Assembly: GCA_018303115.1 (NCBI GenBank)
Contig: JAGVYT010000001.1
Location: forward strand, 10,279 to 74,278
DNA from: Candidatus Woesearchaeota archaeon
GTDB taxonomy: Archaea; Nanobdellota; Nanobdellia; Woesearchaeales; UBA10216
DNA length: 64,000 nucleotides
Direction: 5' to 3'
Shown here: positions 3,160 to 27,729 of the stretch, piece after piece
How positions within the stretch are numbered: the stretch's first letter is position 1
How the letters are laid out: each line of letters begins with the position of its first letter
Notes under the pieces: generated by a model
What the model was told of the DNA's origin: nothing
The model's database searches: none
What the model saw: the letters and a program-made list of their open reading frames with translations, nothing else
Translations under genes and position numbers: made by a program

Positions 3160-4080
3160 TCACGGCTTTTTCATAAGCTTTCTTATTTCTGCCAACAGGC
3201 TTCCAGCACTAACCGAATATTTTTCCATCAGACTCGCCTGAGAGCCATAACCATCCGGAAAAATGTCAGGGATGCCGATAATTCTGAACAGCTTGCCAAG
3301 ATTGGCTTCTGCTATGACTTCGGCTACAGCGCTTCCGAGCCCCCCGATAATGCTGTGCTCCTCAATGGTGATTATGCCCGACACTTTCCCGGCATACTTG
3401 AGAATGCTCTCCCTGTCTAAAGGTTTTATAGTGGGAACATGGAGTATCGAAACGTCAATCCCCTCATTTTTAATGGAATCTGCAGCTTCCTTAGCAAGCC
3501 CAAGCGTGATGCCAGTTGTTACAACCAGCACATCCTTTCCCTCCCTCATTGGAATGGCTCTGCCAATCTCAAAAGAATCATTGGAAGTGACTATGGGGTC
3601 AAAGCCCTTGGCAAGCCTTATGTAAATAGGGCCTGGGTAATCAACAGTTAGCGGCATCACCCTGCGCATTTCATCAGCATCAGCAGGGGCTATCACAGTC
3701 ATGTTCGGTATTGCACGCATAATAGCAATATCATCAATCGCCTCATGGGTTGGGCCAAGGGGGGCATACACAAGTCCACCGCCATTGCCAATAAGGCGGA
3801 CAGGCAGGTTATGCAGGCACAAGTCCAGAACAATCTGCTCAAAACAGCGCCTTGTTATAAAAGTTGCAATTGTGTTAACATAAACTATCTTGCCCTCAAG
3901 GGCAAGCCCTGCAGCCATCCCGATAATATTCTGCTCTGACACGCCCTCCATGAAAAAGCGATCAGGCATCTCCTTCTTGAACCTGTCAAGCGTGCCTGCG
4001 CCAAGGTCAGAGCCTATAAAGAATATTCTCCTGTCTTTTTTTGCCAGTTCGTAAACCATTTCCAAGCTTGTCTTGCGCAT
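3160..4080 (-). CDS. transketolase, C-terminal subunit (pyrimidine-binding and C-terminal domains)
   Basis: FFMEGVSEQN..GMAAGLALEGK, GPTHEAIDDIA and the MRAIPNMTVIAPAD block are typical of split transketolase subunit B. 1-nt overlap with upstream subunit. Confidence 0.85.
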   Translation of the reverse strand: MRKTSLEMVYELAKKDRRIFFIGSDLGAGTLDRFKKEMPDRFFMEGVSEQNIIGMAAGLALEGKIVYVNTIATFITRRCFEQIVLDLCLHNLPVRLIGNGGGLVYAPLGPTHEAIDDIAIMRAIPNMTVIAPADADEMRRVMPLTVDYPGPIYIRLAKGFDPIVTSNDSFEIGRAIPMREGKDVLVVTTGITLGLAKEAADSIKNEGIDVSILHVPTIKPLDRESILKYAGKVSGIITIEEHSIIGGLGSAVAEVIAEANLGKLFRIIGIPDIFPDGYGSQASLMEKYSVSAGSLLAEIRKLMKKP

Positions 4081-4892
4081 CAGTATTCCTCCAGCCCCCT
4101 GTAAAGTTCCTTAATTTCACCGTCGTTCAACCCGCTCTTGTGATGCCATTCCATGTTGCCCTCTGCAAACTTAATGCCCTTGCCCTTCATAGTATGACAA
4201 ATGACAACGCTGGGCTTACCCGCATCTACAGGCAGGTTTGAGAACGCAGACTTAAGCTCATCCAAATCATGACCATCCACTTCCCTGACGCCAAACCCAA
4301 AACTCCTCCACTTATCAGCCAAAGGCTCCAGGTCCTGAATGCCAACTGTCGGGCCATAAGACTGATACTTGTTATAATCCATAACAACAACGAGATTGTC
4401 AAGCTTATGCTTCCCGGCAGACAAGGCAGCCTCCCACACGCTGCCCTCATCTGCCTCACCATCTCCAATGACGACAAAAGTGCGGTAACCTGCTTTTTCA
4501 TAGCGCGCATTAAGGGCCATGCCTATCCCCACAGGAAAGCCGTGTCCCAAACTGCCTGTTGAAAACTCAACGCCGGGTATTTTAGGCTCAGGATGACCCC
4601 CAAGAATGCCATCAATCTTACAGAATTTCCATAACTCTGATTCAGGGAAAAACCCTTTCTCTGCAAGAACTGCGTAAAGCGCAAGACAGCCATGACCTTT
4701 GCTGAGGATGAACCTGTCCCGCCCCTCCCATCCGGGGTTTTCGGCTTTGTAACGCAGAACATCATCATACAAAACCCTGATAATTTCCACCAGGGAAAAG
4801 GCAGAGCCCAGGTGCCCGCGCCTGCTGCACTCCAAAATCCTGATTATTGTCCTTCGCAGTTCCTTTGATTTAGCGTCAAGAGGCATCGTCAC
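4080..4892 (-). CDS. transketolase, N-terminal subunit (TPP-binding)
   Basis: GHLGSAFS, SKGHGCLALYA, GSLGHGFPVGIGMA and GDGEADEGSVWEA thiamine-diphosphate motifs. Confidence 0.85.
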   Translation of the reverse strand: MTMPLDAKSKELRRTIIRILECSRRGHLGSAFSLVEIIRVLYDDVLRYKAENPGWEGRDRFILSKGHGCLALYAVLAEKGFFPESELWKFCKIDGILGGHPEPKIPGVEFSTGSLGHGFPVGIGMALNARYEKAGYRTFVVIGDGEADEGSVWEAALSAGKHKLDNLVVVMDYNKYQSYGPTVGIQDLEPLADKWRSFGFGVREVDGHDLDELKSAFSNLPVDAGKPSVVICHTMKGKGIKFAEGNMEWHHKSGLNDGEIKELYRGLEEY

Positions 4893-11573: not shown

Positions 11574-12520
11574 AATTCATAGTCTTGGGAACAACAGAAT
11601 TCACGCTAAGATGCGCCCAGGCCCTTCTGGACAGCGGGGCTGAATTGCGCCTTCTTGTCTCAATGCCTGAACGCTCACGCCCAATCAATTCAGCAGACGT
11701 TTCGGGTTTTGCGCAATCCCATAAAATCCTCTACCATGAAACGGAAGACATAAACTCGCCCGAATCCTTATCTGCAATAAAGAAACAACAGGCAGATTAC
11801 ATCCTGGCATCCTGGCCAGCCATAATAAAAAGGGAAGTTCTAGGGGCAGCAAGGATGTGCATAGGCTCGCACCCTACAGACCTGCCGCACAACAGGGGCA
11901 GGCACCCCTTGCACTGGCTGATAACGCTAGGATTCAAGGAGTCAAAACTAAGCTTTTTCAGAATGAATGAAGGCATAGACTCGGGAAACATACTGCTTAA
12001 GATTCCATTCAGGATTGGCAAAAAGGACTCCATCATGGAGGTTGTTGCAGAACTGAACGATGCAGCATACAAGGGAACAAAGGGGCTTTACAGGCTGCTA
12101 AAGCGGTCAGTGCCCGAAGGAACAGAACAGGAGCATAAAGAAGCCAATTACTGGAGGAAAAGAAGCGTGCATGACGTGATTCTGGACTTAAGAATGCCAT
12201 CAGACACGATAATCAGGACTGTAAGGTCGTTTTCAACGCCATACCCATGCGCCAAGCTTATCTTTGAAGACAGCATCATTGCAGTATCAAAGGCAGAAGT
12301 TGCGCAAACACCGCTTTCTAAAGAGGAAATAATGAGGACAGAACCTGGAAAAATCATCAGCGCTGAAGGAAAAAGAATGCTGGTTAAAGCAGAAGACAAA
12401 ATCATGCTTTTAGAAACTGACGGGCTTCCACAGAAGATATTAGAGGCAAAATACATCCACCCCCCGTCAAAATACATTGCCGGATGGTCGCAGAATCAGC
12501 TCAAAAGACTAGAAAACTAG
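11570..12520 (+). CDS. sugar N-formyltransferase (formyl_trans_N family, QdtF/FdtF/ArnA-N-like)
   Basis: SHPTDLPHNRGRHPLHW matches the formyltransferase HxSLLPxxRG-type catalytic motif. 4-nt overlap with the aminotransferase gene. Confidence 0.7.
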   Translation: MKFIVLGTTEFTLRCAQALLDSGAELRLLVSMPERSRPINSADVSGFAQSHKILYHETEDINSPESLSAIKKQQADYILASWPAIIKREVLGAARMCIGSHPTDLPHNRGRHPLHWLITLGFKESKLSFFRMNEGIDSGNILLKIPFRIGKKDSIMEVVAELNDAAYKGTKGLYRLLKRSVPEGTEQEHKEANYWRKRSVHDVILDLRMPSDTIIRTVRSFSTPYPCAKLIFEDSIIAVSKAEVAQTPLSKEEIMRTEPGKIISAEGKRMLVKAEDKIMLLETDGLPQKILEAKYIHPPSKYIAGWSQNQLKRLEN

Positions 12521-14900: not shown

Positions 14901-16114
14901 TAAAAATACCTGCAAAGAAGGAAATAACACAGCACTGGTATTTCGAGAAAAAGGGAATCATTTCACAACACCGCAACCTAAAATCGCAAAGCGACCTTGA
15001 TTCCTACGAGCAGGAAAGAAGAGACCTGTTTACAGATAAGCTTGCGCTGCCGCCAAGCGCCTTTACCAACTCGCAATTGCTTGAGTTCGGGCCTTCTGCA
15101 GGGGAAAACGCCATTGTGTTTGCAATGTGGGGGGCTTCATGCACGCTTGTTGAGCCAAACCTCAAAGCACACCCCTGCATCAAAAAATATTTCGAGCAGT
15201 TCAAACTTGCACAAAAGCTTGTCGAAGTAGACGGCTCAACACTGGAAAGCTACTCCAAACGCCAAATACCTGACAAGAAATTTGACTTCATAGTTGCCGA
15301 AGGATTCATCTACCTAGTGAAGCCAGACCCCATGTGGATTGGCTTCTTTTCCAGAATCATAAAGAACAACGGGTTTGTCATCCTGAACTACTGCGAGACA
15401 TTCGGCAACTTTCAGGAGCTGTTCCTGAAAGCAATTCACAGCAGAATGTGCAAACTCACAGGGATGGGCTCTGTGGAAGCTGCGGGGAAATGGTTTGGAG
15501 CCAAGTGGAATTCCATACCGCACACCACAACAATGGAGTCCTGGGTGGCTGACGTTTTAGACAACCCAACTGTCCGGCTAGCGCGATTTTACGAACTGAA
15601 AGAGCTGTGCACAAACCTCTGCAACTCTGGATTTTACCTATACTCTTCCTGGCCACCGTATAAGAACAGCCTTGAGGTGTATTGGGCCAAGAAAATGCCA
15701 AAACCAAAAGAGCAGCTTGAATCACAGAACGAATTTATCGAAAGAAGCAGGCTTAGCCACATGTTCGGCAGGAAGCATTTCCTTCTAAAGACTGGCCCAG
15801 AAATGGAACCCTCCATTAAAGAGCTTCTTACCCTCACAGACAGCCTGATAGACGAATTTGACAGGGACAAGGCAGAGAAATGCATCGAGCACCTTGGCAG
15901 CATAGAGAGGCTCATAGGCTCGGACGCAGTAATTTCAGAGCCCAAAGACGTTAAAGAAACGCTTAACGCGATTAAAAGCATAAAGCACATCCTTAACCTG
16001 CTTATTGCAGGAAACGCAGACGACATAGCAGCATTCTGCAGCAGCGACAAGGCATTCATCAAAAGCTGGGGAATGCCCACGCATTACGCTGTCTTCAGAA
16101 AAGGAAGCGAATAG
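14897..16114 (+). CDS. hypothetical protein with N-terminal class I methyltransferase-like domain
   Basis: LEFGPSAGENAI (GxG), FDFIVAEGF and NNGFVIL resemble MTase motifs I-III. C-terminal ~200 aa helical and unassigned. ATGA overlap upstream. Confidence 0.35.
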   Translation: MIKIPAKKEITQHWYFEKKGIISQHRNLKSQSDLDSYEQERRDLFTDKLALPPSAFTNSQLLEFGPSAGENAIVFAMWGASCTLVEPNLKAHPCIKKYFEQFKLAQKLVEVDGSTLESYSKRQIPDKKFDFIVAEGFIYLVKPDPMWIGFFSRIIKNNGFVILNYCETFGNFQELFLKAIHSRMCKLTGMGSVEAAGKWFGAKWNSIPHTTTMESWVADVLDNPTVRLARFYELKELCTNLCNSGFYLYSSWPPYKNSLEVYWAKKMPKPKEQLESQNEFIERSRLSHMFGRKHFLLKTGPEMEPSIKELLTLTDSLIDEFDRDKAEKCIEHLGSIERLIGSDAVISEPKDVKETLNAIKSIKHILNLLIAGNADDIAAFCSSDKAFIKSWGMPTHYAVFRKGSE

Positions 16115-16805
16115 ACTTCAAGCGCACCCTGAAGAACAGCCTAAAAACCGTGCTTACGATTCCAAAAACATTCCTGAGGCGCAGGGCAGTAGTTGAGCTG
16201 GTTTCCTGCAGCGCCATAATTGGAACTTCCTTTACAGAATGCCCCGCCTTCACGAGCCGTATAAGAATCTCAGGATAAACCCCGAAGCTGCTGGTTGTGA
16301 TGCTCACTTTCCCAACAAGGCTTTTTTCATACATCTGCATGCCAAAATAATACTTCAGGCGAAGTCCGAACAAAAGGTTCAGGAAAGCGGAAACAACAGC
16401 GGAAATGACCCGGCGGTGAAGAAGCCTGACCTTCTTGTTTCCGCTGTAGGAAATAACAACATCCGCCTGACCAATCTTGCCCATGTAATTCTCAAGAGAA
16501 TCCGGGGTCAGGCTGTCAGGGCCTGGAAGCAGCATCACGTATTCCTTGGAAGCGTGCCTAATGCCAAGAGCGTAGCTGTAACCAACATTCATGTTCCTCC
16601 TGTTATGAAACACCCTTATCCTGGAATTCCTTTTTGCAAGCCTGTCAACAATTTCCCCTGTCCTGTCACTGCTCCCGTCCTCAAAAATAAGCAGCTCGTA
16701 ATCTGAAAACAGCTTAGCGGCAATTCTACTGACACCCCTTACAGAAGATGCAATAGTCTGCTCATCGTTATACGCCGGTATTATGATGCTGACTGACTTT
16801 TTCAT
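16095..16805 (-). CDS. GT2 glycosyltransferase (ArnC/DPM1-like polyprenol-phosphate sugar transferase candidate)
   Basis: SIIIPAYNDEQTI and the FEDGSSD (DxD-type) motif. Start at internal MKKSVSIII. Confidence 0.7.
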   Translation of the reverse strand: MKKSVSIIIPAYNDEQTIASSVRGVSRIAAKLFSDYELLIFEDGSSDRTGEIVDRLAKRNSRIRVFHNRRNMNVGYSYALGIRHASKEYVMLLPGPDSLTPDSLENYMGKIGQADVVISYSGNKKVRLLHRRVISAVVSAFLNLLFGLRLKYYFGMQMYEKSLVGKVSITTSSFGVYPEILIRLVKAGHSVKEVPIMALQETSSTTALRLRNVFGIVSTVFRLFFRVRLKSIRFLF

Positions 16806-17182
16806 GCCCACACCGCGGAGTAGCCCATCATTGCCACCCCAAACACTATGGCGGCTATCCCAAGCCACTTATACTTATTCATGCGCTCCCCCAAAAACCT
16901 CACCGACAGCAGCGAAACCCAAACAAAAGTCAAGGCATTTGTGGGAAAGACAACCGCCAGGTCCGCATTTTTTAACGCCCACAAGTAAAAGGGCATAGGC
17001 AGCAGGTAAAAAAAGACGCCAAGCATAAGCTTATAGTTACGCAGCTGCTCAGCAACGCTAAAAGAAAACTTCACCGAGCCAAGCTTAAAAAACAGGGCAC
17101 CAAAAGCCACTGAAACCGTCAAAACCGCCACAATGCCAACTACAACGATTGTCTCAACCATGTTCAGCACCATAACCAACAA
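16802..17182 (-). CDS. small EamA/SMR-like 4-TM protein (ArnE/ArnF-like flippase subunit candidate)
   Basis: 126 aa, four hydrophobic helices, 4-nt overlap with the GT2 gene. Confidence 0.55.
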   Translation of the reverse strand: MLVMVLNMVETIVVVGIVAVLTVSVAFGALFFKLGSVKFSFSVAEQLRNYKLMLGVFFYLLPMPFYLWALKNADLAVVFPTNALTFVWVSLLSVRFLGERMNKYKWLGIAAIVFGVAMMGYSAVWA

Positions 17183-17513
17183 GGCTTATCCCCGCAGCAA
17201 TAAAAAATATGCCAAGCCAGTTAATCAAAAGCAGCACTTCATTCAAAACAAACAGGGCTACCAAAGCCACCCATACGTAACTTAATGCAAAAAAAGGGTA
17301 TGCGACAGACAATTCCGCCTTTTTAAGAGCAAAAAGCACAAGCATAGCCCCAAGGGCGTAAAAAAACAGTCCAAGAAATATGTTATAGTTGGTTATTATG
17401 GCCTGCACATTCAGCTCAAGAGCGGCTGCCCCTGTCTTATAGAAGTATTGGGCTGCTACAGAAAATACGGTAAAAATAACAATAAGCAAAATTGCTGCAG
17501 GACTGGTTTTCAT
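17154..17513 (-). CDS. small EamA/SMR-like 4-TM protein, second subunit
   Basis: ~120 aa from MKTSPAAILLIV, four TM helices, overlaps the partner gene. The longer ORF-caller start includes a non-TM extension that overlaps hairpin element e. Confidence 0.5.
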   Translation of the reverse strand: MKTSPAAILLIVIFTVFSVAAQYFYKTGAAALELNVQAIITNYNIFLGLFFYALGAMLVLFALKKAELSVAYPFFALSYVWVALVALFVLNEVLLLINWLGIFFIAAGISLVGYGAEHG

Positions 17514-17578
17514 CAAAAAGCGGAAACGCGACATGTTTTTAAAGATTTGCGTTGACTGGTTCCAAATCTGAACATATT

Positions 17579-17622
17579 CCACTTTCCTCACCCTAATCCA
17601 GTTAAGGGGGAGGAAAGTGAGG
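17579..17622 (+). repeat. hairpin family member e (stem CCACTTTCCTCACCC/GGGGGAGGAAAGTGAGG with one mismatch, loop TAATCCAGTTAA)
   Basis: Read directly, in divergent region between EamA gene (-) and pfkB kinase gene (+). Confidence 0.65.
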
Positions 17623-17717
17623 AAGCAGCAGGGCAAAGCAAATTGCATCGCAAGCTAACTTTTCAATAGCGCCAGAGAAGGATTAAATTTAAAAAGTAAC
17701 AGGGAATCGTTCTAAAC

Positions 17718-18758
17718 ATGGAAGAATCGTATATTGAGGGAATTAAAAGAAAGTATTCTATTGAAAAGCTGAAGGAAGCGCTGTCACAATTTAAAAGAAT
17801 AAAAATCCTCGTGATAGGCGACACCATAATTGATGAATACCATTTTACACGCCCGAAAGGCAGGGCAACCAAAGACCCGATTCTTTCAGTTGACTATGTC
17901 AACCATGAGGTTTACGGAGGGGGCATACTGGCTGTTGCAAATCATGTAAGCAATTTTGCAGATGAAGTAACATGCATTACGGCAATTGGAGACAGGAACG
18001 ACCGGAAAGACTTCATCACCGGCGCCCTCAACAAAAACGTAGACTTGAAACTTCTCGTAAAAAAGGACTCGCCAACTACAATAAAAAAGAGGTATTTGGA
18101 CAACATAAGGAATGAAAAACTGTTCAAGGTAGAGTTCATTAACGAAGCCCCAATTGATGAAGAAACTGAAAAAAAGCTTATTGGATTCCTAGAGCAGGAG
18201 CTGCCTAAAAACGACTTGGTCCTCCTTGGAGACTTCGGGCACGGCTTAATAACTGAAAAGGTCATAAAGCTACTGGAAGAAAAGTCAAAATACCTGGCAG
18301 TAAATGCGCAATGCAACAGCGCAAACCTCGGCTTTAATTTTGTAACCAAGTATAGCAAACCAAAATACATAACCATGGACATTACCGAACTGCAGTATGC
18401 TGTTTCGGACCGCTTCAGCACAGTGGATGTCCTGATGAAAAAGCTCAGGGACAAAACAGGCTTCAGCAATTTCCTGGTAACAATGGGAAAGGAAGGCGCA
18501 GGATACTTCAACAACAACAACATTAGATTCAGCCCTGCCTTTGTCACAAGGCCAAAGGACACAGTAGGGGCAGGGGACGCCGTCTTCAGCGTCACTTCCC
18601 TTTTTTCCTGCCTTGGAATGAAAGAGCTAATCCCGTTCATAGCAAACTGCGCAGGCGGCATTGCAGTGTCGTACCTCGGTAACAAGGAGAGCATAAATAA
18701 AGAGAAACTTCTGGAGTTCATCAGCCAGGCATACAATGGCGAGATTAAAGCAGTGTAG
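17718..18758 (+). CDS. pfkB-family sugar kinase, HldE kinase-domain-like (heptose 7-phosphate kinase candidate)
   Basis: ILVIGDTIIDEY N-terminal motif and GAGDAV near the C-terminus as in RfaE/HldE domain I. TTTAAAAA box 22 nt upstream. Confidence 0.65.
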   Translation: MEESYIEGIKRKYSIEKLKEALSQFKRIKILVIGDTIIDEYHFTRPKGRATKDPILSVDYVNHEVYGGGILAVANHVSNFADEVTCITAIGDRNDRKDFITGALNKNVDLKLLVKKDSPTTIKKRYLDNIRNEKLFKVEFINEAPIDEETEKKLIGFLEQELPKNDLVLLGDFGHGLITEKVIKLLEEKSKYLAVNAQCNSANLGFNFVTKYSKPKYITMDITELQYAVSDRFSTVDVLMKKLRDKTGFSNFLVTMGKEGAGYFNNNNIRFSPAFVTRPKDTVGAGDAVFSVTSLFSCLGMKELIPFIANCAGGIAVSYLGNKESINKEKLLEFISQAYNGEIKAV

Positions 18759-19815
18759 AAAACTCTTTCTTCATAGCCTCATAGCTTTTGCTGTTAACGT
18801 CAATAAATTCGGCATTGATGTTTTCAGCCAGTTCAGCATCATTTCGGCTGTCGCCAATAACAACAGCCATATCAAAATCACCGGGAGTCATGTTAAGCTC
18901 CTTCAGAGCCTGAAGAACCATTCCAGGGCTAGGCTTTCTCATGGCCTTATCCTTTACAAAGTCAGGATTAAACTGAACCCCATTTGCCGAAGCCGCATAC
19001 ACTTTATCAACGTCAGGGCAGAACTGCCAGTTATCTATAACAACACCCTTCTCCCTTAAAAATTCCGCAATGCAGCCGTTAACATCAGCCACAGTCTTAA
19101 GCGCAAAATAATTGCGCGCTACGCCCTGCTGATTTGAGATAACAATCTTGACAGTGTCATACTTTGTCTGAACATAAGAAATTAGGTCTATAACAGGCTT
19201 CTGCAGCTTAACCTGCCCCATCCAGTTCTCATCCCTGCCAAGAAAATCAACGTGCTCCACAAGAGTGCCGTCCCTGTCTATTACAAGAAGGATTTTTTCG
19301 CGCTTAACGTTATCCTTTATGTGGTTTATTATTTCAGTTGATGAAAATTTCTGGTCTGCCGTGTATTTCACCTCTCCGCCAGCCGCCTCAATAGCCCTGC
19401 GCTCTGCAGTTATGCCGGGGGTTGTCTTATTGACAAAATCAGGCCCCTTTATGTAAAATGATGGCTTAAGCCTCTCCACGACGTGAACAGCCCGCTCAAA
19501 ATCGCTGACGACCACGAAGTCAACAAAATTAAGGGCTGCTACGGAGTAGGCGCGCAAAAGCTCTGAAAAAATTGGCCTGCCGCTGCCCTTCCTTGCCGTT
19601 ACAAACCTGTCAGAAGTTATTGAAACAAACAAATAATCGCACAACTTCGCTGCAGACTCAAGATGCTTAATGTGCCCGGGATGGAGCAGGTCAAAACCCC
19701 CATGGCAAAGCCCAACAGTTTTATTCGCCTGTTTGAACTCTGAAATTTTCTTAACAGCAGCGCCAAAACCGATAATTTTGTCCGAGCTGAAATCGTTATC
19801 TTCCGCCTTAAACAT
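18745..19815 (-). CDS. bifunctional cytidylyl/adenylyltransferase-like domain (HldE domain II-like) fused to a GmhB-like HAD phosphatase
   Basis: N-terminal GLCHGGFDLLHPGHIKHL (nucleotidyltransferase HxGH-type motif). C-terminal LVIDRDGTLV ... IGDSRNDAELA HAD motifs as in heptose-1,7-bisphosphate phosphatase. Start 19815 preferred over 19875 because a TTTTATAT box lies ~30 nt upstream on the coding strand. Confidence 0.6.
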   Translation of the reverse strand: MFKAEDNDFSSDKIIGFGAAVKKISEFKQANKTVGLCHGGFDLLHPGHIKHLESAAKLCDYLFVSITSDRFVTARKGSGRPIFSELLRAYSVAALNFVDFVVVSDFERAVHVVERLKPSFYIKGPDFVNKTTPGITAERRAIEAAGGEVKYTADQKFSSTEIINHIKDNVKREKILLVIDRDGTLVEHVDFLGRDENWMGQVKLQKPVIDLISYVQTKYDTVKIVISNQQGVARNYFALKTVADVNGCIAEFLREKGVVIDNWQFCPDVDKVYAASANGVQFNPDFVKDKAMRKPSPGMVLQALKELNMTPGDFDMAVVIGDSRNDAELAENINAEFIDVNSKSYEAMKKEFSTLL

Positions 19816-20159
19816 GTTAACCAATGCCAGAGGCAACCCGGAAGAGAATATAAAAGTTTTGCTATAGCGGAACATTCACAGTGACCATTACCAGTCAATT
19901 TCCTGCTTAACTTGGGACTCCCTGCTAAGCCAGACAAGGGTCTTCAGGGGTTGTCCTGAATCCTGTTCGTGTAGCTACTGCATACCCTCAAACCTGTTCT
20001 CCAAAACTTCTATGACCACTCTATGACTCACATACGGCAGAGCAGGAGGGAGGGAAGTAGAAAGGAAGCGATAAACATGCGAGAAAGCCCTTTTAGGACA
20101 GCGCCGGGTCTTCAGGCATTGTTGAAAGTCTTGCCTGCTTGCTTATTCGCCCTTTCTTT

Positions 20160-20200
20160 TTTTCCTTCTCCCCTTAACTTGTTAGAGGGGGGAAGGAAAA
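20160..20200 (+). repeat. hairpin family member b (stem TTTTCCTTCTCCCC/GGGGGGAAGGAAAA with one T-G, loop TTAACTTGTTAGA)
   Basis: Read directly, in the 430-bp divergent region upstream of the surface protein gene. Flanked by further imperfect pairing (TTATTCGCCC / GGGCAAATAA). Confidence 0.7.
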
Positions 20201-20274
20201 TTGGAGGAAGAAGCGACAGCAGCAAAACGGGCAAATAACGACTTTTTCAACAGAGCCCCGGGTCTTCAGCAACA

Positions 20275-20282
20275 TTTAAATA
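20275..20282 (+). promoter_or_regulatory. archaeal TATA box (TTTAAATA) 22 nt upstream of the surface protein ATG
   Basis: Read directly. No SD-like sequence between box and ATG. Confidence 0.55.
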
Positions 20283-20304
20283 GTTATAAAACGGTTTTGC
20301 GGTT

Positions 20305-22677
20305 ATGAAAAAGAGGTTAATGGCAGTCCTGTCAATGCTGCTGTTTTTTGCAACAGTAAAGCCGGCAATTGCCGCAATCTCAATAACCTCCCCGGAATTC
20401 GGAGTAGCACAGGAACTCACTTTTGACCTTGAACTGAATACAGACTCAAGCGTATCGTGCAGGTTCAGCACCACCTTTGCAAAACCGTTCAATGAAATGG
20501 ATGAAGTCACCACAACAGGAAACACTCTTCACACAATAGAAGGCATCACACTGCCTGCGTTTGGAACAGAATACAACTACTTCATTAACTGCTCGTCCGG
20601 AACTGAAGCGTCGGATATCAAACTAAAAGCGGACAACACAGAGCCTTCAATTCTAAATGCTGTTGCAGAGCCTGAAAAGGTTCTGCAATCCCCGCTTGAA
20701 ACAACACTCAGTGTAAAAACAGGCGAGAATACAAGCTGCAAATACGACCAAACTTTTGAAGAGTATGACAGCATGGCCAATTTTTTTATCGGAAGCGACA
20801 GCGACAAAAACAACTACAAAAACTCACACGAAAAGCCCCTTACACGCCTTAGCGACAACACTGACTACACTTTCAACGTGATGTGCCGCGACTTATCAGG
20901 AAGGAAAACGACCCTTGCAAAAATCAGTTTCAAAGTCAACACAAGCACAGAGCCGGAAATAATTGACTTTACGCCAAAAGACGGCTCTTACAAGGGTGAG
21001 GAGAACGTTGTCATTTCCATAACCACAAACAAAAACAGCATTTGCAAATACGGAAGCGAATCGCCTCCAACAAGGGAGTCGGGAAATTTCAATGTCCAGG
21101 GAACACTGCACGAAACAACACTGCAGCTGGATGAAGGAAGCCACACTTATTATTTCAAGTGCGTGTTTGAAGGCCCTAAAGAACGCACAGCACAAACAAC
21201 ATTCACGATAGACAAGACAAAACCGGCAGTTTTGCTTGTGGATGACGACCAGAAACTTGACGATGCGCCTGACGGCTACACATACTACACAAACAGGCTA
21301 AAAGCAAGGTGGGAAGCAAAAGACAACGAATCAGGCATTAAAGACTACAATTACTCAATAATCTCGGGGAGCATGACGGTAGTAAACTGGAGCACAACAA
21401 CATCTGACGAAGTAACCGCAAGAGACCTTGAGCTGCAGGACGGAAGGGAGTATGTTTTCAGGGTTAAGGCGCGAAACAACGCAGGGCTATGGAGCGAGAC
21501 AAAGGAAAGCGACGGGGTAAGGGTTGACATAAGCCTGAACGCAGAGCAGGCCTGCAAGAACGAAGTAAAAGACGGGGACGAAACAGACGTGGACTGCGGA
21601 GGAAGCTGCGCAAGAAAATGCTTACTGAAAGAAAGCTGTGAAATCACTGACGACTGCTCAAGCGGATACTGCTCAGAGGGAAAATGCGCAAAGGGAAGCT
21701 GCGATGACGGCGTAAAAAACCAGGACGAAACAGACGTGGACTGCGGAGGAAGCTGCGAGGCCTGCCTTGAAGGGGATAAGTGCAAAGAAAGCATTGACTG
21801 CGAAAGCGGCATATGCGCAGAAGATATATGCATCTCAAAAGGCCCGTGCTACAACGGGGTGCTTGACCCAAAAGAAACAGACGTGGACTGCGGAGGGGTT
21901 TGCGCTGAACTGAAATCCATAAAATGCCAGCTAGGCAAAAAATGCTCTGGTGACGAAGACTGCAGAAGCAGAACTTGCGGCATAGACGGAAAGTGCGCTG
22001 CCATGAATGACGGGGATTATGATTCAGTAGTTGACGATAAAGACAACTGCCAGCGGGCTTACAATCCAAAACAGGAAGACACTGACAAAGACGGCTTTGG
22101 AGACTCATGCGATGACGACAGCGATAACGACGGCATGGCAGATGAGTGGGAGAAGAGCTACGGCCTTAATTTCATGAGCCCTGGCGACGCACTGCTTGAC
22201 AACGACGGCGACACGCTTTCAAACCTTAAAGAATCACACCTGAAAACAAACCCGCTGATGGCTGACAGCGACAGGGACGGGTATGACGACGCAGAAGAGG
22301 TTGAAAAAGGAACAGATCCAAACGATGCAGGGTCAAAGCTAAAGAAAAGCAGGCTGCTGACATTCTTTGCATGGATGCTTTTGTTCCTTGCAATATTTGC
22401 AGCAATAGCTTACTTTTATTACAGAAAGCTTACAGGCCCTGTGCTGGAAACAAAAAGGGAACAGGAAAGAAGGGCATCCCATTACGAACCGCCAAGAGCC
22501 GTTCAAGAACCCAAGCAAGAGCGCAAATACAGGCCAGAGCCGATATACAGGCCAACACCTCCTGAAAGAAGGCACACCACAGGAGACCTTGACGAAATCA
22601 GAAGGCACCACTCAAGCCTTTCAGGGGAAGAAGTGTTTGAAAGGCTAAAAAGGCATACGAGAAGGAGGCGACACTAA
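20305..22677 (+). CDS. surface (S-layer-like) glycoprotein candidate: signal peptide, Ig-like region, three Cys-rich repeats, TSP3-like Ca-binding repeats, C-terminal TM anchor with basic tail
   Basis: N-terminal MKKRLMAVLSMLLFFATVKPAIA. Three ~45-aa repeats with ETDVDCGGxC. D-rich DxDxDG repeats. TM helix LLTFFAWMLLFLAIFAAIAYFYY then a Pro/Arg/Glu-rich cytoplasmic tail. Many N-x-S/T sequons. TTTAAATA box at 20275-20282. Confidence 0.6.
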   Translation: MKKRLMAVLSMLLFFATVKPAIAAISITSPEFGVAQELTFDLELNTDSSVSCRFSTTFAKPFNEMDEVTTTGNTLHTIEGITLPAFGTEYNYFINCSSGTEASDIKLKADNTEPSILNAVAEPEKVLQSPLETTLSVKTGENTSCKYDQTFEEYDSMANFFIGSDSDKNNYKNSHEKPLTRLSDNTDYTFNVMCRDLSGRKTTLAKISFKVNTSTEPEIIDFTPKDGSYKGEENVVISITTNKNSICKYGSESPPTRESGNFNVQGTLHETTLQLDEGSHTYYFKCVFEGPKERTAQTTFTIDKTKPAVLLVDDDQKLDDAPDGYTYYTNRLKARWEAKDNESGIKDYNYSIISGSMTVVNWSTTTSDEVTARDLELQDGREYVFRVKARNNAGLWSETKESDGVRVDISLNAEQACKNEVKDGDETDVDCGGSCARKCLLKESCEITDDCSSGYCSEGKCAKGSCDDGVKNQDETDVDCGGSCEACLEGDKCKESIDCESGICAEDICISKGPCYNGVLDPKETDVDCGGVCAELKSIKCQLGKKCSGDEDCRSRTCGIDGKCAAMNDGDYDSVVDDKDNCQRAYNPKQEDTDKDGFGDSCDDDSDNDGMADEWEKSYGLNFMSPGDALLDNDGDTLSNLKESHLKTNPLMADSDRDGYDDAEEVEKGTDPNDAGSKLKKSRLLTFFAWMLLFLAIFAAIAYFYYRKLTGPVLETKREQERRASHYEPPRAVQEPKQERKYRPEPIYRPTPPERRHTTGDLDEIRRHHSSLSGEEVFERLKRHTRRRRH

Positions 22678-22714: not shown

Positions 22715-24454
22715 ATGCAAAAGCTTGACGCTGCAGCTGTGCTTGTTTTGGCGATTTTTTCTGCCATTCTTCTAAACGTTTCAGCGCAAAACTCAGCCAC
22801 CTTCGAGGAAAACAACCACCTCTCAACAGGCTATTACTTTCTGCTGACAAACGATTACCGCCTTGGGCCTGGCCACCCGCCCCTCACTTACAAGCTGGCT
22901 GCGGCACCGCTGCTTTTTTCAGGAGCAGACTTCCCTTTTGAAAACGATTACTGCAAAAACTTTCTTTATTACGGCTGCGCGCAGGAACTTCTATACAACT
23001 CAGGACTTAACAGCCAGCTTTTAACATTTCTAGGAAGACTCCCATTCACAGCGCTGGCTGCACTTACAGGGCTTGTAGTTTACCTCTGGTCAAAGCAGCT
23101 TTACGGAAGGAAGGCAGGCGTTCTTTCACTCCTCCTTTACTCCTTTAGCCCAGCAGTGCTCGGATGGTCTGCGCTGATAATGACTGACTTTTCTGCTGCA
23201 GCCTTTGCATTCACCAGCGTTTACTTTCTCTGGCGGCTTATGAGAAAGCCAAACACGCTCAACCTGCTTCTTACAGGGCTTTTCTTCGGCCTTGCCGTAT
23301 CGTCAAAATTCACTGCCGTTTTGTTCTTACCAATATACCTCTGCATAGCAGTTTTCTGGTTCTTTTCAGGAAAACCCTACAGCTTTTCCAGGCTGAAAAG
23401 GCATTTGCCAAAAATACTGCGCAACAGAGAAGCCTCATTTATAGCAAGCATAACAATAATAGCCGGTATTGCGTTCCTCGTTGTCTGGGCTGTTTACGGG
23501 TTTGACACAGGAAGCTACTCAAGCGGGGCTCCTGAGCGCTACACAGACTTGGTTTACGAAAACGTTCCTGCAAAGTTTGAGAACACGGCATCCTTCCTGA
23601 TTGAAAAAATGCCTTTGCCTTTCCCATCACTCTTTGTGGGAGTTTCCCAGCAAATATTTACGTCAGCAACAGGCTCAAAGCCATCCTTCCTTTTAGGCAA
23701 CACTTACGAAGGCGGCGTCTGGTACTTCCACATCATAGAGTTCCTCGTCAAGGTTCCAGCGGCATTCATTATCCTGCTTTTGCTCAGCATTTCAATGCTT
23801 TTAATCAACAGGAAAAGCTACCAAAACGACACCCTGTTCCTGCTTGTCCCTGCACTGACATACTACGCTGCTTTTGCCGTGATAATAAACATTGGCTCAG
23901 GCATACAGCACATACTTCCGGTTTTCCTTTTCCTGTTTGTCTTTGTTGGAAGAACAGCACTATCAAAAAAGCCGATGCAATGGCTTGTATACGGACTTGC
24001 CGCCTGGTATGTCATAGCATCATTATCAGCATTCCCACACTACATCTCATACTTCAACGAGTATGTTGACGATGACGAGGGCTACAAATACTTTCTTGGA
24101 GCAAACCTCGACATGGGACAGGACCTGAAAGCCCTTTCCACTTATGTGAAAGAAAATAACCTGGACATAAAACTCAGCTATTTCGGGACAACCGACCCCG
24201 CAGCCTATCTTGACTATGAATACCTGCCCTCACCGTTTTTCCAGGCATGGGCGCCTGGGTTCGCACATTCAAAAAATGACTTGAATGCCAATTACACTGA
24301 AAACTGCGGCAGGACAGAAGGCATCATAGCCGTCAGCATAACCAACAGGGAAGGGGCTTTTATGCTTAACAGCTCATGCTACGACTGGCTTAAAGAATAC
24401 GAGCCAACAGAAGTCATAGGGCACACAATATTCGTTTACAACATTACGCAATGA
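22715..24454 (+). CDS. GT-C membrane glycosyltransferase, PMT_2 / GT39-GT83 (ArnT-like) family
   Basis: Multi-TM protein with the conserved first-loop GHPPLTYKL motif typical of the ArnT/PMT family. TATA-like TTTTATAA 22 nt upstream. Confidence 0.65.
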   Translation: MQKLDAAAVLVLAIFSAILLNVSAQNSATFEENNHLSTGYYFLLTNDYRLGPGHPPLTYKLAAAPLLFSGADFPFENDYCKNFLYYGCAQELLYNSGLNSQLLTFLGRLPFTALAALTGLVVYLWSKQLYGRKAGVLSLLLYSFSPAVLGWSALIMTDFSAAAFAFTSVYFLWRLMRKPNTLNLLLTGLFFGLAVSSKFTAVLFLPIYLCIAVFWFFSGKPYSFSRLKRHLPKILRNREASFIASITIIAGIAFLVVWAVYGFDTGSYSSGAPERYTDLVYENVPAKFENTASFLIEKMPLPFPSLFVGVSQQIFTSATGSKPSFLLGNTYEGGVWYFHIIEFLVKVPAAFIILLLLSISMLLINRKSYQNDTLFLLVPALTYYAAFAVIINIGSGIQHILPVFLFLFVFVGRTALSKKPMQWLVYGLAAWYVIASLSAFPHYISYFNEYVDDDEGYKYFLGANLDMGQDLKALSTYVKENNLDIKLSYFGTTDPAAYLDYEYLPSPFFQAWAPGFAHSKNDLNANYTENCGRTEGIIAVSITNREGAFMLNSSCYDWLKEYEPTEVIGHTIFVYNITQ

Positions 24455-25656: not shown

Positions 25657-26043
25657 ATGAAACCAGAAGATTACTTCAGAAATGGCAAAGTGTATGTTTG
25701 GAAAGAAACTTTTGCCGTTGTGAAATCAAAGAAAACATATCTCAATGCTTTTGCTAATATCATTGATAAGAATGAAACAACTGTAATTATTGACCAATCC
25801 AAATTCAATGAGAAAGACGCAATTGAAATTGAAAGAGATTGGAAGATATTAACTTTTGATATGGTTTTACCATTTGGATTGGTAGGATTTATGGCAAAAG
25901 TTTCTCAAGCCCTCGCAGATGAAAAAATATCTATTTTTGCCATTTCTGCCTATTCAACAGACCATATTCTTGTGAAAGAAAAAGACGTAACAAAAGCAAT
26001 AAAGAAACTTGAAAATCTTGGTTGCATCGTTGAAAAGAAGTAA
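25657..26043 (+). CDS. ACT-domain-like small protein (function unknown)
   Basis: 128 aa, weak resemblance to ACT/RAM-type ligand-binding folds. Located in the AT-rich island. Confidence 0.3.
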   Translation: MKPEDYFRNGKVYVWKETFAVVKSKKTYLNAFANIIDKNETTVIIDQSKFNEKDAIEIERDWKILTFDMVLPFGLVGFMAKVSQALADEKISIFAISAYSTDHILVKEKDVTKAIKKLENLGCIVEKK

Positions 26044-26060
26044 CGCCCGAATTCTGAACT

Positions 26061-26098
26061 CGAAATTTTTGCCTTCGGCATCGTTGCACTAAATTTTA
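26061..26098 (+). repeat. island direct repeat A, copy 1 (CGAAATTTTTGCCTTCGGCATCGTTGCACTAAATTTTA)
   Basis: 38-nt exact match with 27730-27767. Contains UUCG-loop hairpin TGCC-TTCG-GCA. Confidence 0.8.
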
Positions 26099-26122
26099 TT
26101 CCTAACGGAGAGCATAACACGC

Positions 26123-26767
26123 ATGCGATACGTTAAGTTCAATAATTTCAGGGGCTTTACGATAATGGGGCGGTTTTCAATTCGAAATATTTTAACACCT
26201 ATTCAATATTTTAAAATTATGGATAGTAAGAATAAGCCAAAATACGAATTTACTAATAAAATTACCGGTTCTTCTCTTCCCACTGATACTTTTCTAGAAA
26301 AATTAAGAGAATTCCTAACCAATAATAGCTTTTCTTGTTCTCAGACAAAAGAAAAGACTGGAGAAGCAAAAACCACAGGAGTCGGAGTAACAATGGAAGG
26401 AGACTTGGGTGGAGGTATTGCTCATTCAGATATTATCACAAATAAATGGAATCCGTTTAATATTAAATGCGGTGGAAAAACATGTTCTTTCTTAGGTAGA
26501 TTTAAAGGAAATATTAAACTGACAGAAATGGCTAAATATAGTAAAAAGAAAAGAGATATACATTATGAATTAAAAGATTACAATTTAACAGGCAATATTG
26601 ATTTTTCACCATACGGTTTTTGGATGTTTATTTTATTCTGCGTAGGTATATACCTCAGTTTTAAATTTTCAACTGGTTTTTGGATTGGGAAAAAGAGTTT
26701 ATGGAAAGATGGATACCTTGGGCTTTTGGAGTTGCTTCTATACTATTCGCTTTTGTTGGTGGAATGA
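26123..26767 (+). CDS. hypothetical protein with C-terminal TM segment
   Basis: AT-rich ORF. C-terminal hydrophobic stretch. 3' end overlaps the next ORF by 88 nt in another frame (possible frameshift). Confidence 0.3.
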   Translation: MRYVKFNNFRGFTIMGRFSIRNILTPIQYFKIMDSKNKPKYEFTNKITGSSLPTDTFLEKLREFLTNNSFSCSQTKEKTGEAKTTGVGVTMEGDLGGGIAHSDIITNKWNPFNIKCGGKTCSFLGRFKGNIKLTEMAKYSKKKRDIHYELKDYNLTGNIDFSPYGFWMFILFCVGIYLSFKFSTGFWIGKKSLWKDGYLGLLELLLYYSLLLVE

Positions 26768-26868
26768 CTATAAGAGATATAGTTGGTCTGATAAAGGATA
26801 AGCATGAAAAATTATTAAAAGATGCTGTAAAAGAGATAGACAAAGAAACCAAACGTTCAACAAAATAA
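26680..26868 (+). CDS. small membrane protein (single TM)
   Basis: 62 aa with WIPWAFGVASILFAFVGG helix and a charged tail. May be the displaced C-terminus of the upstream ORF. Confidence 0.3.
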   Translation: MDWEKEFMERWIPWAFGVASILFAFVGGMTIRDIVGLIKDKHEKLLKDAVKEIDKETKRSTK

Positions 26869-26881
26869 TAAAACGACTGCT

Positions 26882-26906
26882 CACTAACTTTACAGTCCTT
26901 CGGACA
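26882..26906 (+). repeat. island repeat C, copy 1 (CACTAACTTTACAGTCCTTCGGACA; GTCC-TTCG-GAC tetraloop hairpin)
   Basis: Shares CAGTCCTTCGGACA with 27622-27635 and CTAACTTTACAG with 29783-29794. Confidence 0.65.
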
Positions 26907-26915
26907 TTTACAAAA

Positions 26916-27314
26916 TCAATCCATCTTAACCAATTCTTCCGTAGAATAAACCCGAATTGTATTTTGCTTTTCTTTCAAATCCCTATCATTGCTCCACAAA
27001 TTGCATCTTAATTTTAGGGCAAGAGCCAAATATGGGACATCTTTTGGGTCTGGAGAAATCTTTTCGGCTTTTTCGATGAAAGGCTCAATTTCTTTTTTTG
27101 GCATTAGCATAACATTTCGTTCAAACAAATCAAAAAGGTCGTTAAAATTTTCCTCATTCCTTTTGGTCTTTCCTTCCAGATAGTCCTTGTATTTTCTGAA
27201 TTCCTCAAAAATAAATTCAGGTGCATAGAGTTTATGCTTAAACAGAATGTCTGATGTTCCGCTTTCTTTCAGCAAAGCTGCAAAAAGAACATTTGAATCT
27301 ATCACTAAATCCAT
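26916..27314 (-). CDS. vapC: PIN-domain ribonuclease toxin (VapC-like)
   Basis: N-terminal VIDSNVLFAAL with conserved Asp, later acidic residues (PDPKDVPYLALAL, SNDRD). Confidence 0.7.
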   Translation of the reverse strand: MDLVIDSNVLFAALLKESGTSDILFKHKLYAPEFIFEEFRKYKDYLEGKTKRNEENFNDLFDLFERNVMLMPKKEIEPFIEKAEKISPDPKDVPYLALALKLRCNLWSNDRDLKEKQNTIRVYSTEELVKMD

Positions 27315-27316
27315 GA

Positions 27317-27556: not shown

Positions 27557-27613
27557 TTATGTGTAAATATGTATAATATGTTCAAATATATAAAACTTAC
27601 TATTTCTGCCCCT

Positions 27614-27635: not shown

Positions 27636-27729
27636 GCTACTCTGCTTCGCAGAAATTCATGCAATTCGGTGACAATCTTTAAAAAATAATAAAAACGGCT
27701 GTCCCGCCGTCCTAAAGTTCGCTTTAACC

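Follow-up and report, generated by a model that had tools for sequence, protein, structure and literature searches.

Two convergent genes of a Woesearchaeota (DPANN) archaeon probably encode, judging from their sequences, three of the four activities of the β-type pathway to NDP-D-glycero-D-manno-heptose (probability about 0.7). One gene specifies an HldA-like sugar-phosphate kinase of the PfkB family, and the other a bifunctional protein in which an HldC-like nucleotidyltransferase (NT) domain is fused to a GmhB-like HAD phosphatase domain (NT-HAD). Bacteria build surface glycans from NDP-heptoses, which also strongly activate the ALPK1 sensor of vertebrates. A PfkB-type kinase together with an NT of the cytidylyltransferase fold is the signature of the β-anomer (HldA/HldC/HldE) route; the α route employs a GHMP kinase (HddA) and HddC, which has the NTP_transferase fold. 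The locus is a new architectural variant of a well-known pathway, a modest variation rather than a new principle. Throughout, the window denotes the whole stretch of DNA analysed, 64,000 nucleotides of contig JAGVYT010000001.1, and positions are counted from its first letter (Table 1).

Table 1. Positions of the genes, domains and overlap discussed in the text, in window coordinates.
Feature	Position	Strand	Remarks
GmhA-like SIS gene	-2307..-1720		outside the window, placed from a 98.6%-identical contig
Split transketolase, N and C subunits	3160..4892	-	PF00456 at 1.8e-43; PF02779 and PF02780
GT2 glycosyltransferase	16095..16868	-	PF00535
Two small 4-TM EamA-type membrane proteins, ArnE/ArnF-like	16802..17648	-	PF00892
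HldA-like sugar-phosphate kinase (PfkB family) gene	17718..18758	+	346 aa
Tail-to-tail overlap of both convergent 3′ ends	18745..18758	.	14 bp
Bifunctional NT-HAD gene	18745..19815	-	356 aa; start set from homologues
C-terminal GmhB-like HAD-IIIA phosphatase domain	18760..19296	-	residues ~173-352 of the 356-aa protein
N-terminal HldC-like nucleotidyltransferase domain	19306..19788	-	residues ~10-170 of the 356-aa protein

Structure of the convergent gene pair

The first-pass annotation of this DNA had described a gene converging on the kinase gene and coding for an N-terminal HxGH nucleotidyltransferase and a C-terminal HAD phosphatase. This arrangement stands, but the start at 19875 does not. 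The enclosing ORF (18745-19875, minus strand, 376 aa) is single and uninterrupted, and an alignment with 19 homologues places the initiation codon at its M21, that is at 19815, in agreement with the length of ~355 aa found in all 120 best matches to the protein; the gene limits given in Table 1 therefore follow the homologues. The kinase gene ends with a TAG at 18756-18758 and the NT-HAD gene with a minus-strand TAA at 18745-18747. The resulting overlap, which had been singled out for a check of convergent transcription and antisense, is real but not conserved: at locus L002 a gap of 24 nt lies between the corresponding convergent genes, so there is no sign of a functional antisense element.

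Both genes are real rather than chance ORFs, since they have strong homologues (best E-values of 1e-159 for the NT-HAD protein and 1e-181 for the kinase), at least four independent metagenome assemblies show the identical gene arrangement, and the catalytic motifs of both domains are invariant across 76 members of the NT-HAD family. The kinase is 100% identical to the NCBI entry 'hypothetical protein J4470_00135 [Candidatus Woesearchaeota archaeon]'.

Kinase of the HldA type

The kinase matches PF00294 (E = 1.8e-15) and carries the sequence VGAGDAVF, which contains the GAGD catalytic motif. Its best NCBIfam model is TIGR02198 (rfaE_dom_I), which scores 130.9 bits against a curated equivalog cut-off of 345 bits and is followed by a second family at only 41.5 bits. 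In the PDB the only strong match is HldA from B. cenocepacia (4e84, 7e-15), with ribokinases next at ~1e-3. The HldE model NF008454 matches the kinase as well as the NT-HAD protein. The nearest characterised relative of the kinase in these searches is HldA, consistent with its earlier description as a pfkB kinase with affinity to domain I of HldE.

Nucleotidyltransferase domain

A CTP_transf_like match covers residues 57-183 of the 376-aa ORF. The domain displays the motifs GGFDLLHPGH, RKGSGRP, KGPD and FSST; the first of these, which contains the HxGH signature, is invariant among family members, and the C-terminal (S/T)TT-type motif reads STT in the family and SST in the window protein. The likeness to domain II of HldE that had been proposed for this domain is supported by several comparisons. 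TIGR02199 (rfaE_dom_II) scores 108.2 bits, below its curated cut-off of 181.5 bits but still the top family by a wide margin, with the glycerol-3-phosphate cytidylyltransferase TagD at 34 bits. When a sequence profile is compared with the PDB, the best single-domain match is HldC (5x9q, 63 bits; TagD 44, CCT 35), and the top Foldseek match is BpHldC (5xf2, 3.8e-11). By family model, PDB profile and fold, the nearest characterised relatives of the domain are HldC and domain II of HldE.

Some family-specific motifs are altered. Of the heptose-1-phosphate-binding motifs of BpHldC, which are docking predictions rather than experimental assignments, TNG is changed to CHG, NSD to TSD, and EXTP is lost; the KG and KG(P) motifs are kept, and an insertion of 5-9 residues follows KGPD. 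The (F/L)XXGXSTT motif appears as DQKFSST in the window protein, which has no STTR5 arginine, the 'R5' position being hydrophobic in a variant clade of NT domains. It is to this clade, with CHG/TSD/FSST where others have TNG/NSD/RSTT, that the window domain belongs. Lachnospiraceae have NT-kinase genes of this clade, with the same variant motifs, that adjoin SIS and HAD genes. Because the NT is most closely related to NT-kinase proteins with the reverse order (~505 aa) and not to canonical HldE, the breaking of a bacterial kinase-NT fusion, as had been suggested, is not the likely history of the locus. Nor is a 'split HldE' in itself a novelty, as bacteria commonly have hldA and hldC as separate genes.

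HAD phosphatase domain

Domain matches on the 376-aa ORF comprise HAD/Hydrolase_like and HAD-IIIA at residues 196-361, with the motifs DRDGT, SNQQGVAR, RKP and GDSRND. Residues D180, D182, G183, T184, R293, K294, P295, G321 and D326 (356-aa numbering) are invariant. The domain scores above the cut-offs for HAD-IIIA (TIGR01662, 69.3 bits; cut-off 44.6) and for the histidinol-phosphatase domain (TIGR01656, 87.6 bits; cut-off 84.15), and below those for GmhB (TIGR00213, 52.9 vs 149.6 bits; NF006506, 59.0 vs 178 bits). The HisB-N models reach 43.5-51.6 bits, lower than the GmhB models. The same order is seen in the PDB, where the profile search ranks E. coli GmhB (3l8e/2gmw, 48 bits) above 2o2x (42 bits) and HisB-N (35.5 bits), and the best Foldseek match is again E. 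coli GmhB (2gmw, 2.8e-10). Among the proteins compared, GmhB proteins are the nearest relatives of the domain, and its earlier designation as GmhB-like is upheld by profile and fold alike.

A Zn-binding cap (CxH + CxC) has been described as characteristic of GmhB and HisB-N (PMC9798254). The CxC half is absent from the window protein, which has CPD...AMRKP in this region, and CxCRKP occurs in none of the 120 family members. M. loti 2o2x likewise has no CxC ahead of its RKP (PDHPMRKP) in the alignment. The cap insert of the window domain is longer than that of GmhB.

Distribution of the fusion

The transferase-phosphatase fusion had been announced as new. NT-HAD is indeed a real and conserved family, with at least 120 clusters of ~355 aa in Woesearchaeota/Nanoarchaeota (DPANN), but it is not unique, and comparable fusions seem to have arisen independently elsewhere. 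An AlphaFold2 model of the window protein (mean pLDDT 93.1) comprises two domains joined by a linker of ~5 residues or fewer, and the short linker is conserved across homologues. Other domain orders are also found, namely PfkB-NT-HAD, HAD-NT-PfkB and NT-PfkB proteins, and in Micrarchaeota an operon (locus L065) encodes SIS, kinase and HAD-NT proteins. The L065 fusion clears the curated thresholds of both HldC and GmhB, with 199.7 bits on TIGR02199. Because the other fusions carry canonical motifs and the domain order in L065 is reversed, the NT-HAD, HAD-NT and three-domain fusions elsewhere look like independent events. At locus L003 two NT domains lie side by side, an arrangement that a simple one-pathway model does not explain.

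Bacterial tblastn matches that appeared full-length (Geobacteraceae, Planctomycetota, Bacillota and others) were rejected as NT-HAD fusions, as ORF-level HMM mapping resolved them into hldE (kinase-NT) followed by a separate gmhB. In the literature searched, which included commentaries on the work of Tang et al., neither a description of this NT-phosphatase fusion nor a biochemical characterisation of any NT-HAD family member was found.

Isomerase and glycan-island context

The assignment of the locus to an NDP-heptose pathway, also made in the first-pass annotation, is strengthened by its association with GmhA-type SIS proteins. A C-terminal SIS domain is present in 36 of the 120 closest kinase homologues, and orthologous kinases are fused to or adjoin SIS genes at loci L001, L005, L007 and L008. 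Inside the window no GmhA was detected, either by a six-frame HMM search built from the 36 kinase-fused SIS domains (best E = 0.31) or by tblastn, and the 10 kb to its right hold pyrimidine genes only, with no GmhA. In a 98.6%-identical contig, a GmhA-like gene does lie ~1.7-2.3 kb beyond the left edge of the window, ~19 kb from the gene pair and in the same island. Its product scores 119.7 bits on TIGR00441 (cut-off 209, not reached), is 41-45% identical to the kinase-fused SIS domains, and matches gmhA/phosphoheptose isomerase best, with DiaA and HxlB ranking lower.

Of all neighbours, the GT2 glycosyltransferase is linked most consistently to the fusion gene; its orthologue ends directly upstream of that gene at loci L001, L002, L004 and L005. 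This enzyme, weakly similar to ArnC, AglJ and dolichyl-phosphate hexose transferase, is likely the first user of the activated sugar. Among NCBIfam models the pair of 4-TM proteins matches ArnE and ArnF most strongly (35-44 bits, under cut-offs of 92-99), and the pair may serve as a flippase for a lipid-linked sugar. Transketolase is the best NCBIfam match for both split halves (260 and 193 bits), a possible local supply of sedoheptulose-7-phosphate. Further members of the island are PMT_2/GT-C enzymes, C-methyltransferases, a 4,6-dehydratase-like enzyme, a formyltransferase and an aminotransferase; the probable product of the whole is a surface glycan linked to a lipid. No clear HldD epimerase was identified in or beside the window, where several SDR genes fit GalE or dTDP-glucose dehydratase models better than the one for the heptose epimerase, and no heptosyltransferase was identified in or beside it.

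Proposed pathway and alternative readings

In the proposed pathway, the GmhA-like SIS isomerase would convert sedoheptulose-7-phosphate to heptose-7-phosphate, the HldA-like kinase would phosphorylate C1, the C-terminal GmhB-like domain of the fusion protein would take off the 7-phosphate, and its N-terminal HldC-like domain would join the heptose-1-phosphate to a nucleotide to give NDP-heptose. The last two enzymes would thereby reside on one chain, with consecutive active sites arranged in a domain order opposite to the order of reaction, and intermediates may be channelled between the two domains. The NDP-heptose would probably feed the surrounding glycan island by a presumptive downstream route. 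What is observed is the structure of the genes, the identity of their domains, their conservation, their placement in families and their association with other genes. The exact sugar and nucleotide we infer; all four activities score under their NCBIfam equivalog cut-offs (131 vs 345, 108 vs 181.5, 53-59 vs 150-178 and 120 vs 209 bits) and some family-specific motifs have changed.

These same features leave some room, although clearly less than for the canonical pathway, for a locus that follows the same enzyme logic (1-kinase, distal phosphatase, then NT) on a non-canonical substrate, be it another heptose stereoisomer or another aldose derived from a ketose phosphate through the island transketolase, or with CTP, UTP or GTP in place of ATP. 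Scores far under the equivalog cut-offs, the altered predicted sugar-phosphate/nucleotide motifs of the variant clade (CHG, TSD, hydrophobic 'R5'), a phosphatase cap with a longer insert and no Zn site, and an island with many enzymes that handle unusual sugars, whether branched, aminated or formylated, would all fit this reading, as would the capacity of heptose nucleotidyltransferases to make CDP- and UDP-heptose (Tang et al., as relayed in PMC11461863 and PMC11573728). Against it, the SIS partner resembles GmhA in particular, more than DiaA or HxlB, the four activities are associated as in canonical operons, and for no domain does another substrate family score higher. It is very improbable, in turn, that the NT is a phospho-alcohol cytidylyltransferase (glycerol-3-phosphate, ethanolamine-phosphate or choline-phosphate) or a RibL-type FAD synthetase, with an unrelated HAD and a coincidentally adjacent kinase. 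The fold is common to all these enzymes, and in both sequence searches of the PDB the lowest E-value over the whole sequence belongs to 3elb, a human ethanolamine-phosphate cytidylyltransferase; it was rejected as the best match, as two domains in tandem add up to its score (33 + 25 bits) and HldC scores higher per domain (44 and 63 bits). The cytidylyltransferase alternative had been raised with the original description and was examined: TagD scores far lower than rfaE_dom_II (34 vs 108 bits), and CCT far lower than HldC in the PDB profile comparison (35 vs 63 bits), GmhB proteins are nearest to the HAD domain, and the association of kinase, SIS and HAD is kept across phyla and in several domain fusions. 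That the fusion is an artefact, with neighbouring genes joined through the loss of a stop codon or an error in sequencing or assembly, has a negligible chance of being right. Bacterial hldE and gmhB do often adjoin in NT-then-HAD order, and tblastn merges them into apparent full-length matches. The window, however, holds one uninterrupted ORF, the at least 120 homologous clusters share its length and conserved short linker, at least four independent assemblies contain the gene, and the predicted model is confident and continuous over the domain junction.

The β-type pathway is the reading we prefer. A more speculative and rather unlikely extension of the data is that the NT clade with CHG/TSD/FS[ST]T, together with a GmhB-like domain devoid of the zinc site, marks a distinct DPANN branch whose nucleotide-heptose would not be ADP-heptose but, for example, CDP- or UDP-heptose or another epimer of the heptose. 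Such a product might be tailored by the dehydratase, aminotransferase, formyltransferase and C-methyltransferases of the island. Its export would follow an Arn-like route, with GT2 loading it onto polyprenyl-phosphate, an ArnE/F-like flippase acting next and PMT_2/GT-C last, and it would decorate the cell surface of these host-dependent archaea. If true, this would be the first physiological role for heptose in archaea; why archaea make heptose 'remains elusive' in the words of the authors of the 2024 study, as given in PMC11573728. The outcome is a refined annotation and a hypothesis. With the locus comes a diverged clade of enzymes that can be tested directly for the sugar and nucleotide they use, and its conserved gene context (GT2, ArnE/F-like pair, GT-C enzymes) suggests a use in a lipid-linked surface glycan of genome-reduced DPANN archaea.

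Comparison with known systems

In the HldA + HldC systems of Burkholderia and Neisseria, kinase and NT are likewise separate polypeptides, and these proteins (4e84, 5x9q/5xf2) provide the nearest solved structures for the window kinase and NT, with a like fold and like catalytic HxGH and GAGD motifs. The window NT differs from BpHldC, to which it is ~28-29% identical in structural alignment, in its fusion to a phosphatase, the replacement of the predicted sugar-binding TNG, NSD and EXTP, and the insertion after KGPD. HldE (RfaE) of E. coli and many bacteria contains the same two domain families but joins kinase then NT in one protein, whereas the window has them on separate convergent genes. 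With GmhB (2gmw, 3l8e; M. loti 2o2x) the HAD-IIIA domain shares the same four catalytic motifs and the R-K-P residues; unlike GmhB, it is fused to an NT, is without the CxC half of the Zn cap, has a longer cap insert and scores below the GmhB-specific cut-offs.

Tang et al. (Science, 2024) reported archaeal NDP-heptose enzymes, and fusions that unite several domains of the pathway are known as well. For their heptose nucleotidyltransferases ('HENases') three architectures are given in the commentaries, namely an NT on its own, kinase/NT and isomerase/kinase/NT (PMC11461863, PMC11573728). The NT/phosphatase architecture of the window is not among the three listed there, and in contrast to the HENases the window protein is without the STTR5 arginine. 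Set beside that list, the locus gives a fourth heptose-NT domain architecture, in which the NT is joined to the phosphatase acting just before it in the pathway. Phosphatase and NT also share one chain in the Micrarchaeota L065 HAD-NT protein, in the canonical-clade NT-HAD proteins P0307, P0324 and P0336 (GenBank EKD49868.1) and in the PfkB-NT-HAD protein P0360. Unlike the window protein, these carry canonical T[NS]G and NSD motifs; P0360 has CPH...CDCRKP, and in the L065 protein the two domains stand in the reverse order.

A convergent kinase and nucleotidyltransferase–phosphatase gene pair

The first-pass annotation took this locus for an HldE split into separate genes, with the nucleotidyltransferase half fused to a GmhB-like phosphatase. 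Two convergent ORFs sit exactly at the coordinates it assigned, one for a PfkB kinase and one for a protein that joins an HxGH nucleotidyltransferase (NT) domain to a HAD-IIIA phosphatase (HAD) domain. The proposed tail-to-tail overlap is also seen at the junction, where the kinase stop TAG (18756–18758) and the fusion-gene stop TAA (18745–18747, minus strand) delimit 14 shared bp. Only the fusion start moves: because the best 120 homologues listed are ~355 aa long and align from ORF codon 21 onward, the true start is most likely 19815 rather than 19875, for a product of 356 aa. The same arrangement recurs in at least four independent metagenome assemblies, which rules out an assembly artefact. 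An NCBI protein from a Woesearchaeota MAG matches the kinase with 100% identity, and the host is a Woesearchaeota (DPANN) archaeon.

Coordinates of the gene pair and of surrounding features
Feature	Window coordinates	Strand	Remarks
PfkB kinase ORF	17718–18758	+	346 aa
NT-HAD fusion ORF	18745–19875	-	376 aa at full ORF length
GmhA-like SIS gene	-2307 to -1720		195 aa; outside window, on 98.6%-identical contig
SDR epimerase/dehydratase gene	1–548	+	323 aa, cut by window edge; ORF 45–548 is its C-terminal part
Arn-like gene set	10488–12520, 16095–17648, 541–2442, 22715–24454		aminotransferase, formyltransferase, GT2, ArnE/ArnF-like pair, two PMT_2
APH-like (353 aa) and 214-aa protein genes	4889–6566	-	overlapping
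C-methyltransferase–cupin gene	7522–9264	+	580 aa
CTGAAGACCC copies	19938–19947, 20106–20115, 20260–20269	-	all three on this strand
790-aa protein gene	20305–22677	+	divergent from fusion gene
Low-GC stretch	~26000–30000		GC 0.33–0.35
ORFs in low-GC stretch	26123–26767, 28116–28991		
Lone 5S rRNA gene	37382–37497	+	78.9 bits

Domain identity

A domain search identifies the kinase as a PfkB protein. Its best NCBIfam family is rfaE_dom_I (heptose-7-phosphate kinase; 131 bits, runner-up family 41 bits), and among solved structures only Burkholderia HldA (4e84, E = 7e-15) matches strongly, ribokinases reaching just ~1e-3, in agreement with the proposed HldE domain-I type. The fusion protein comprises an N-terminal CTP_transf_like domain and a C-terminal HAD-IIIA domain, the latter above the curated HAD-IIIA and histidinol-phosphatase-domain cut-offs. 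On a competing reading, the NT would be a glycerol-3-phosphate or choline-phosphate cytidylyltransferase and the HAD an unrelated phosphatase. The NT instead scores 108 bits with rfaE_dom_II vs 34 bits with glycerol-3-phosphate cytidylyltransferase (NCBIfam), and a PDB search with a family profile from 76 sequences places HldC (63 bits in one stretch) ahead of TagD (44) and choline-phosphate cytidylyltransferase (35). The lowest overall PDB E-value belongs to human ethanolamine-phosphate cytidylyltransferase, but only because two of its tandem domains each match. For the HAD, GmhB models outscore HisB-N models in NCBIfam, and the same profile ranks E. coli GmhB (48) above HisB-N (35.5). The AlphaFold2 model (mean pLDDT 93.1, pTM 0.67) forms two compact domains with at most about five linker residues between them; a fold search against the PDB matches it best to B. 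pseudomallei HldC (3.8e-11) and E. coli GmhB (2.8e-10). The motifs GGFDxxHxGH, RK...RP and KGxD of the NT and DRDGT, NQxGxAR, RKP and GDxxxD of the HAD are fully or almost fully conserved in the family. The HldE domain-II-like and GmhB-like assignments withstand the competing reading, and the initial interpretation is supported in substance.

All three domains fall below the NCBIfam equivalog cut-offs (kinase 131 vs 345; NT 108 vs 181.5; GmhB models 53–59 vs 150–178). The NT alignment separates into a canonical clade (HldE/HldC and one Micrarchaeota fusion) with TNG...NSD...E(x)TP...KGGD...(R)STT, and a variant clade (the window protein, all DPANN relatives and reverse-order NT-kinase proteins) with CHG...(I/V)TS(D)...KGP(D/E), a 5–9-residue insert and an S(S/T)T preceded by a hydrophobic residue. 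Since TNG, NSD and EXTP are among the docking-predicted heptose-1-phosphate-binding motifs of BpHldC (PMC7993394), the sugar pocket may differ. According to commentary on the Science 2024 study of Tang et al., the arginine of an 'STTR5' motif is tied to CTP/UTP promiscuity; motif comparison finds it absent from the window NT. A Zn-binding cap is described as characteristic of GmhB and HisB-N (PMC9798254), and its CxC half is missing from the window phosphatase and from all 120 family members compared. Given the sub-cut-off scores, variant NT motifs and missing CxC, the proteins are best called HldA-like, HldC-like and GmhB-like rather than proven equivalogs.

Gene content of the probable heptose pathway

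The beta-anomer route (HldA/HldC/HldE) is recognisable by a PfkB kinase paired with an NT of cytidylyltransferase fold, while the alpha-anomer route relies on HddA and HddC. Among the closest 120 kinase homologues listed (50–59% identity), 36 carry a C-terminal SIS domain, the GmhA isomerase fold. Related DPANN loci place the NT-HAD gene close to a kinase-SIS fusion (L001) or to adjoining kinase and SIS genes (L005, L007), and a stand-alone NT gene of the same clade occupies the latter setting in L008. A Micrarchaeota locus has consecutive genes for SIS, kinase and a HAD-NT fusion of reverse domain order; this fusion exceeds curated cut-offs (HldC 199.7 vs 181.5; GmhB 155.3 vs 149.6). Lachnospiraceae NT-kinase genes with the variant NT adjoin SIS and HAD genes. 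Further permutations are PfkB-NT-HAD, HAD-NT-PfkB and NT-PfkB. A six-frame search finds no SIS domain in the window (best E = 0.31). A 98.6%-identical contig reaching 6.8 kb further left carries a SIS gene whose best families are gmhA/phosphoheptose isomerase (119.7 bits, cut-off 209) and whose product is 41–45% identical to the kinase-fused SIS domains; the island is therefore predicted to encode all four heptose-pathway activities. An SDR gene at the window edge, 67–70% identical in two of the other loci (L007, L009), sits between a PMT_2 gene and this GmhA-like gene.

The surrounding glycan island

The most conserved neighbour of the fusion gene is a small GT2, weakly similar to ArnC, AglJ and dolichyl-phosphate hexose transferases; in four other loci, the orthologue of this GT2 ends directly upstream of the fusion gene. 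In the window, GT2 and kinase are separated by two small membrane proteins with strongest NCBIfam matches to ArnE and ArnF. The island also encodes a PseC/ArnB-like aminotransferase, an ArnA-N-like formyltransferase, a 4,6-dehydratase-like SDR, a split transketolase, two PMT_2 (GT-C) enzymes and two TylC3-type C-methyltransferases, one of them with a fused WbuC cupin. This enzyme set, with the GT2 and the ArnE/ArnF-like pair, suggests a route in which the activated sugar would be tailored by island enzymes and attached to polyprenyl phosphate, and after flipping across the membrane would be transferred extracellularly, with the split transketolase as a possible supplier of sedoheptulose-7-phosphate.

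The cupin fusion (Methyltransf_13/14; C-terminal WbuC-family cupin, 114 bits) is followed by the second C-methyltransferase gene. Directly adjoining the split transketolase are genes for an APH-family kinase-like protein and a 214-aa protein, the latter with no Pfam or NCBIfam match; neither has homologues in the 12 related loci compared.

The intergenic region 19876–20304 holds three copies of CTGAAGACCC, spaced 154 and 168 bp apart, and none occurs elsewhere in the 64 kb (chance expectation 0.10); two of the copies extend to roughly CCTGAAGACCCGGsGCTsT, and the element may be a regulatory site or small repeat. The divergent gene beyond encodes a secreted protein whose N-terminus resembles a signal peptide. 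This protein contains Cys-rich 'ETDVDCGG(S/V)C' modules in repeated copies, Asp-rich repeats of TSP3 type, a transmembrane segment at the C-terminal end and a basic tail; it is probably displayed at the surface and is a candidate glycosylation target. Further right, GC drops from ~0.47 elsewhere, and two ORFs there have no Pfam match; this stretch may be foreign or fast-evolving DNA within the glycan island. The 64 kb yielded no tRNA genes.

Distribution and comparison with known architectures

NT-HAD proteins form a conserved family of at least 120 clusters at 90% identity (52–69% identical over full length), in which the named clusters among the matches listed belong to Woesearchaeota/Nanoarchaeota and annotations read only 'HAD-IIIA family hydrolase' or 'rfaE ... 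nucleotidyltransferase chain/domain'. In GTDB species genomes, a scan finds single-ORF NT-HAD genes of the variant clade in DPANN loci only; bacterial matches of apparent full length instead consist of hldE and, after it, a gmhB gene of its own. Searched exhaustively, 1.84 billion representatives yield just a handful of full-length variant-clade clusters, and stand-alone NT and HAD versions at similar identity, which argues that fusion and fission are both under way. More distant NT-HAD proteins with canonical motifs, such as EKD49868.1 (GenBank, 'uncultured bacterium'), indicate at least one independent origin of the fusion. Bacteria routinely have hldA and hldC as separate genes. The uniqueness implied by the first-pass annotation is overstated, as is its framing of a broken-up HldE; the separate kinase itself is confirmed.

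Two loci show other arrangements. In a Woesearchaeota relative (L003, 10001–12660), a 513-aa gene for an NT-kinase protein, in reverse HldE order, comes directly after the NT-HAD gene, so that two NT domains ~41% identical to each other lie side by side. In a MAG labelled Gammaproteobacteria (L011, 7856–10534), an 893-aa ORF near an NT-kinase gene ends in a HAD of the DPANN NT-HAD family (234 bits, family HMM), which may reflect a mis-binned contig or an additional fusion architecture.

Archaeal NDP-heptose enzymes were already reported by Tang et al., for whom commentaries (PMC11461863, PMC11573728) describe three architectures: NT alone, kinase/NT and isomerase/kinase/NT. An NT-phosphatase architecture did not appear in the literature searched, which covers that study through these commentaries. 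The locus represents a novel domain arrangement within a known pathway, drawn from a diverged clade of enzymes with putative heptose specificity, and its NT/phosphatase protein lies outside the three architectures that the commentaries describe.
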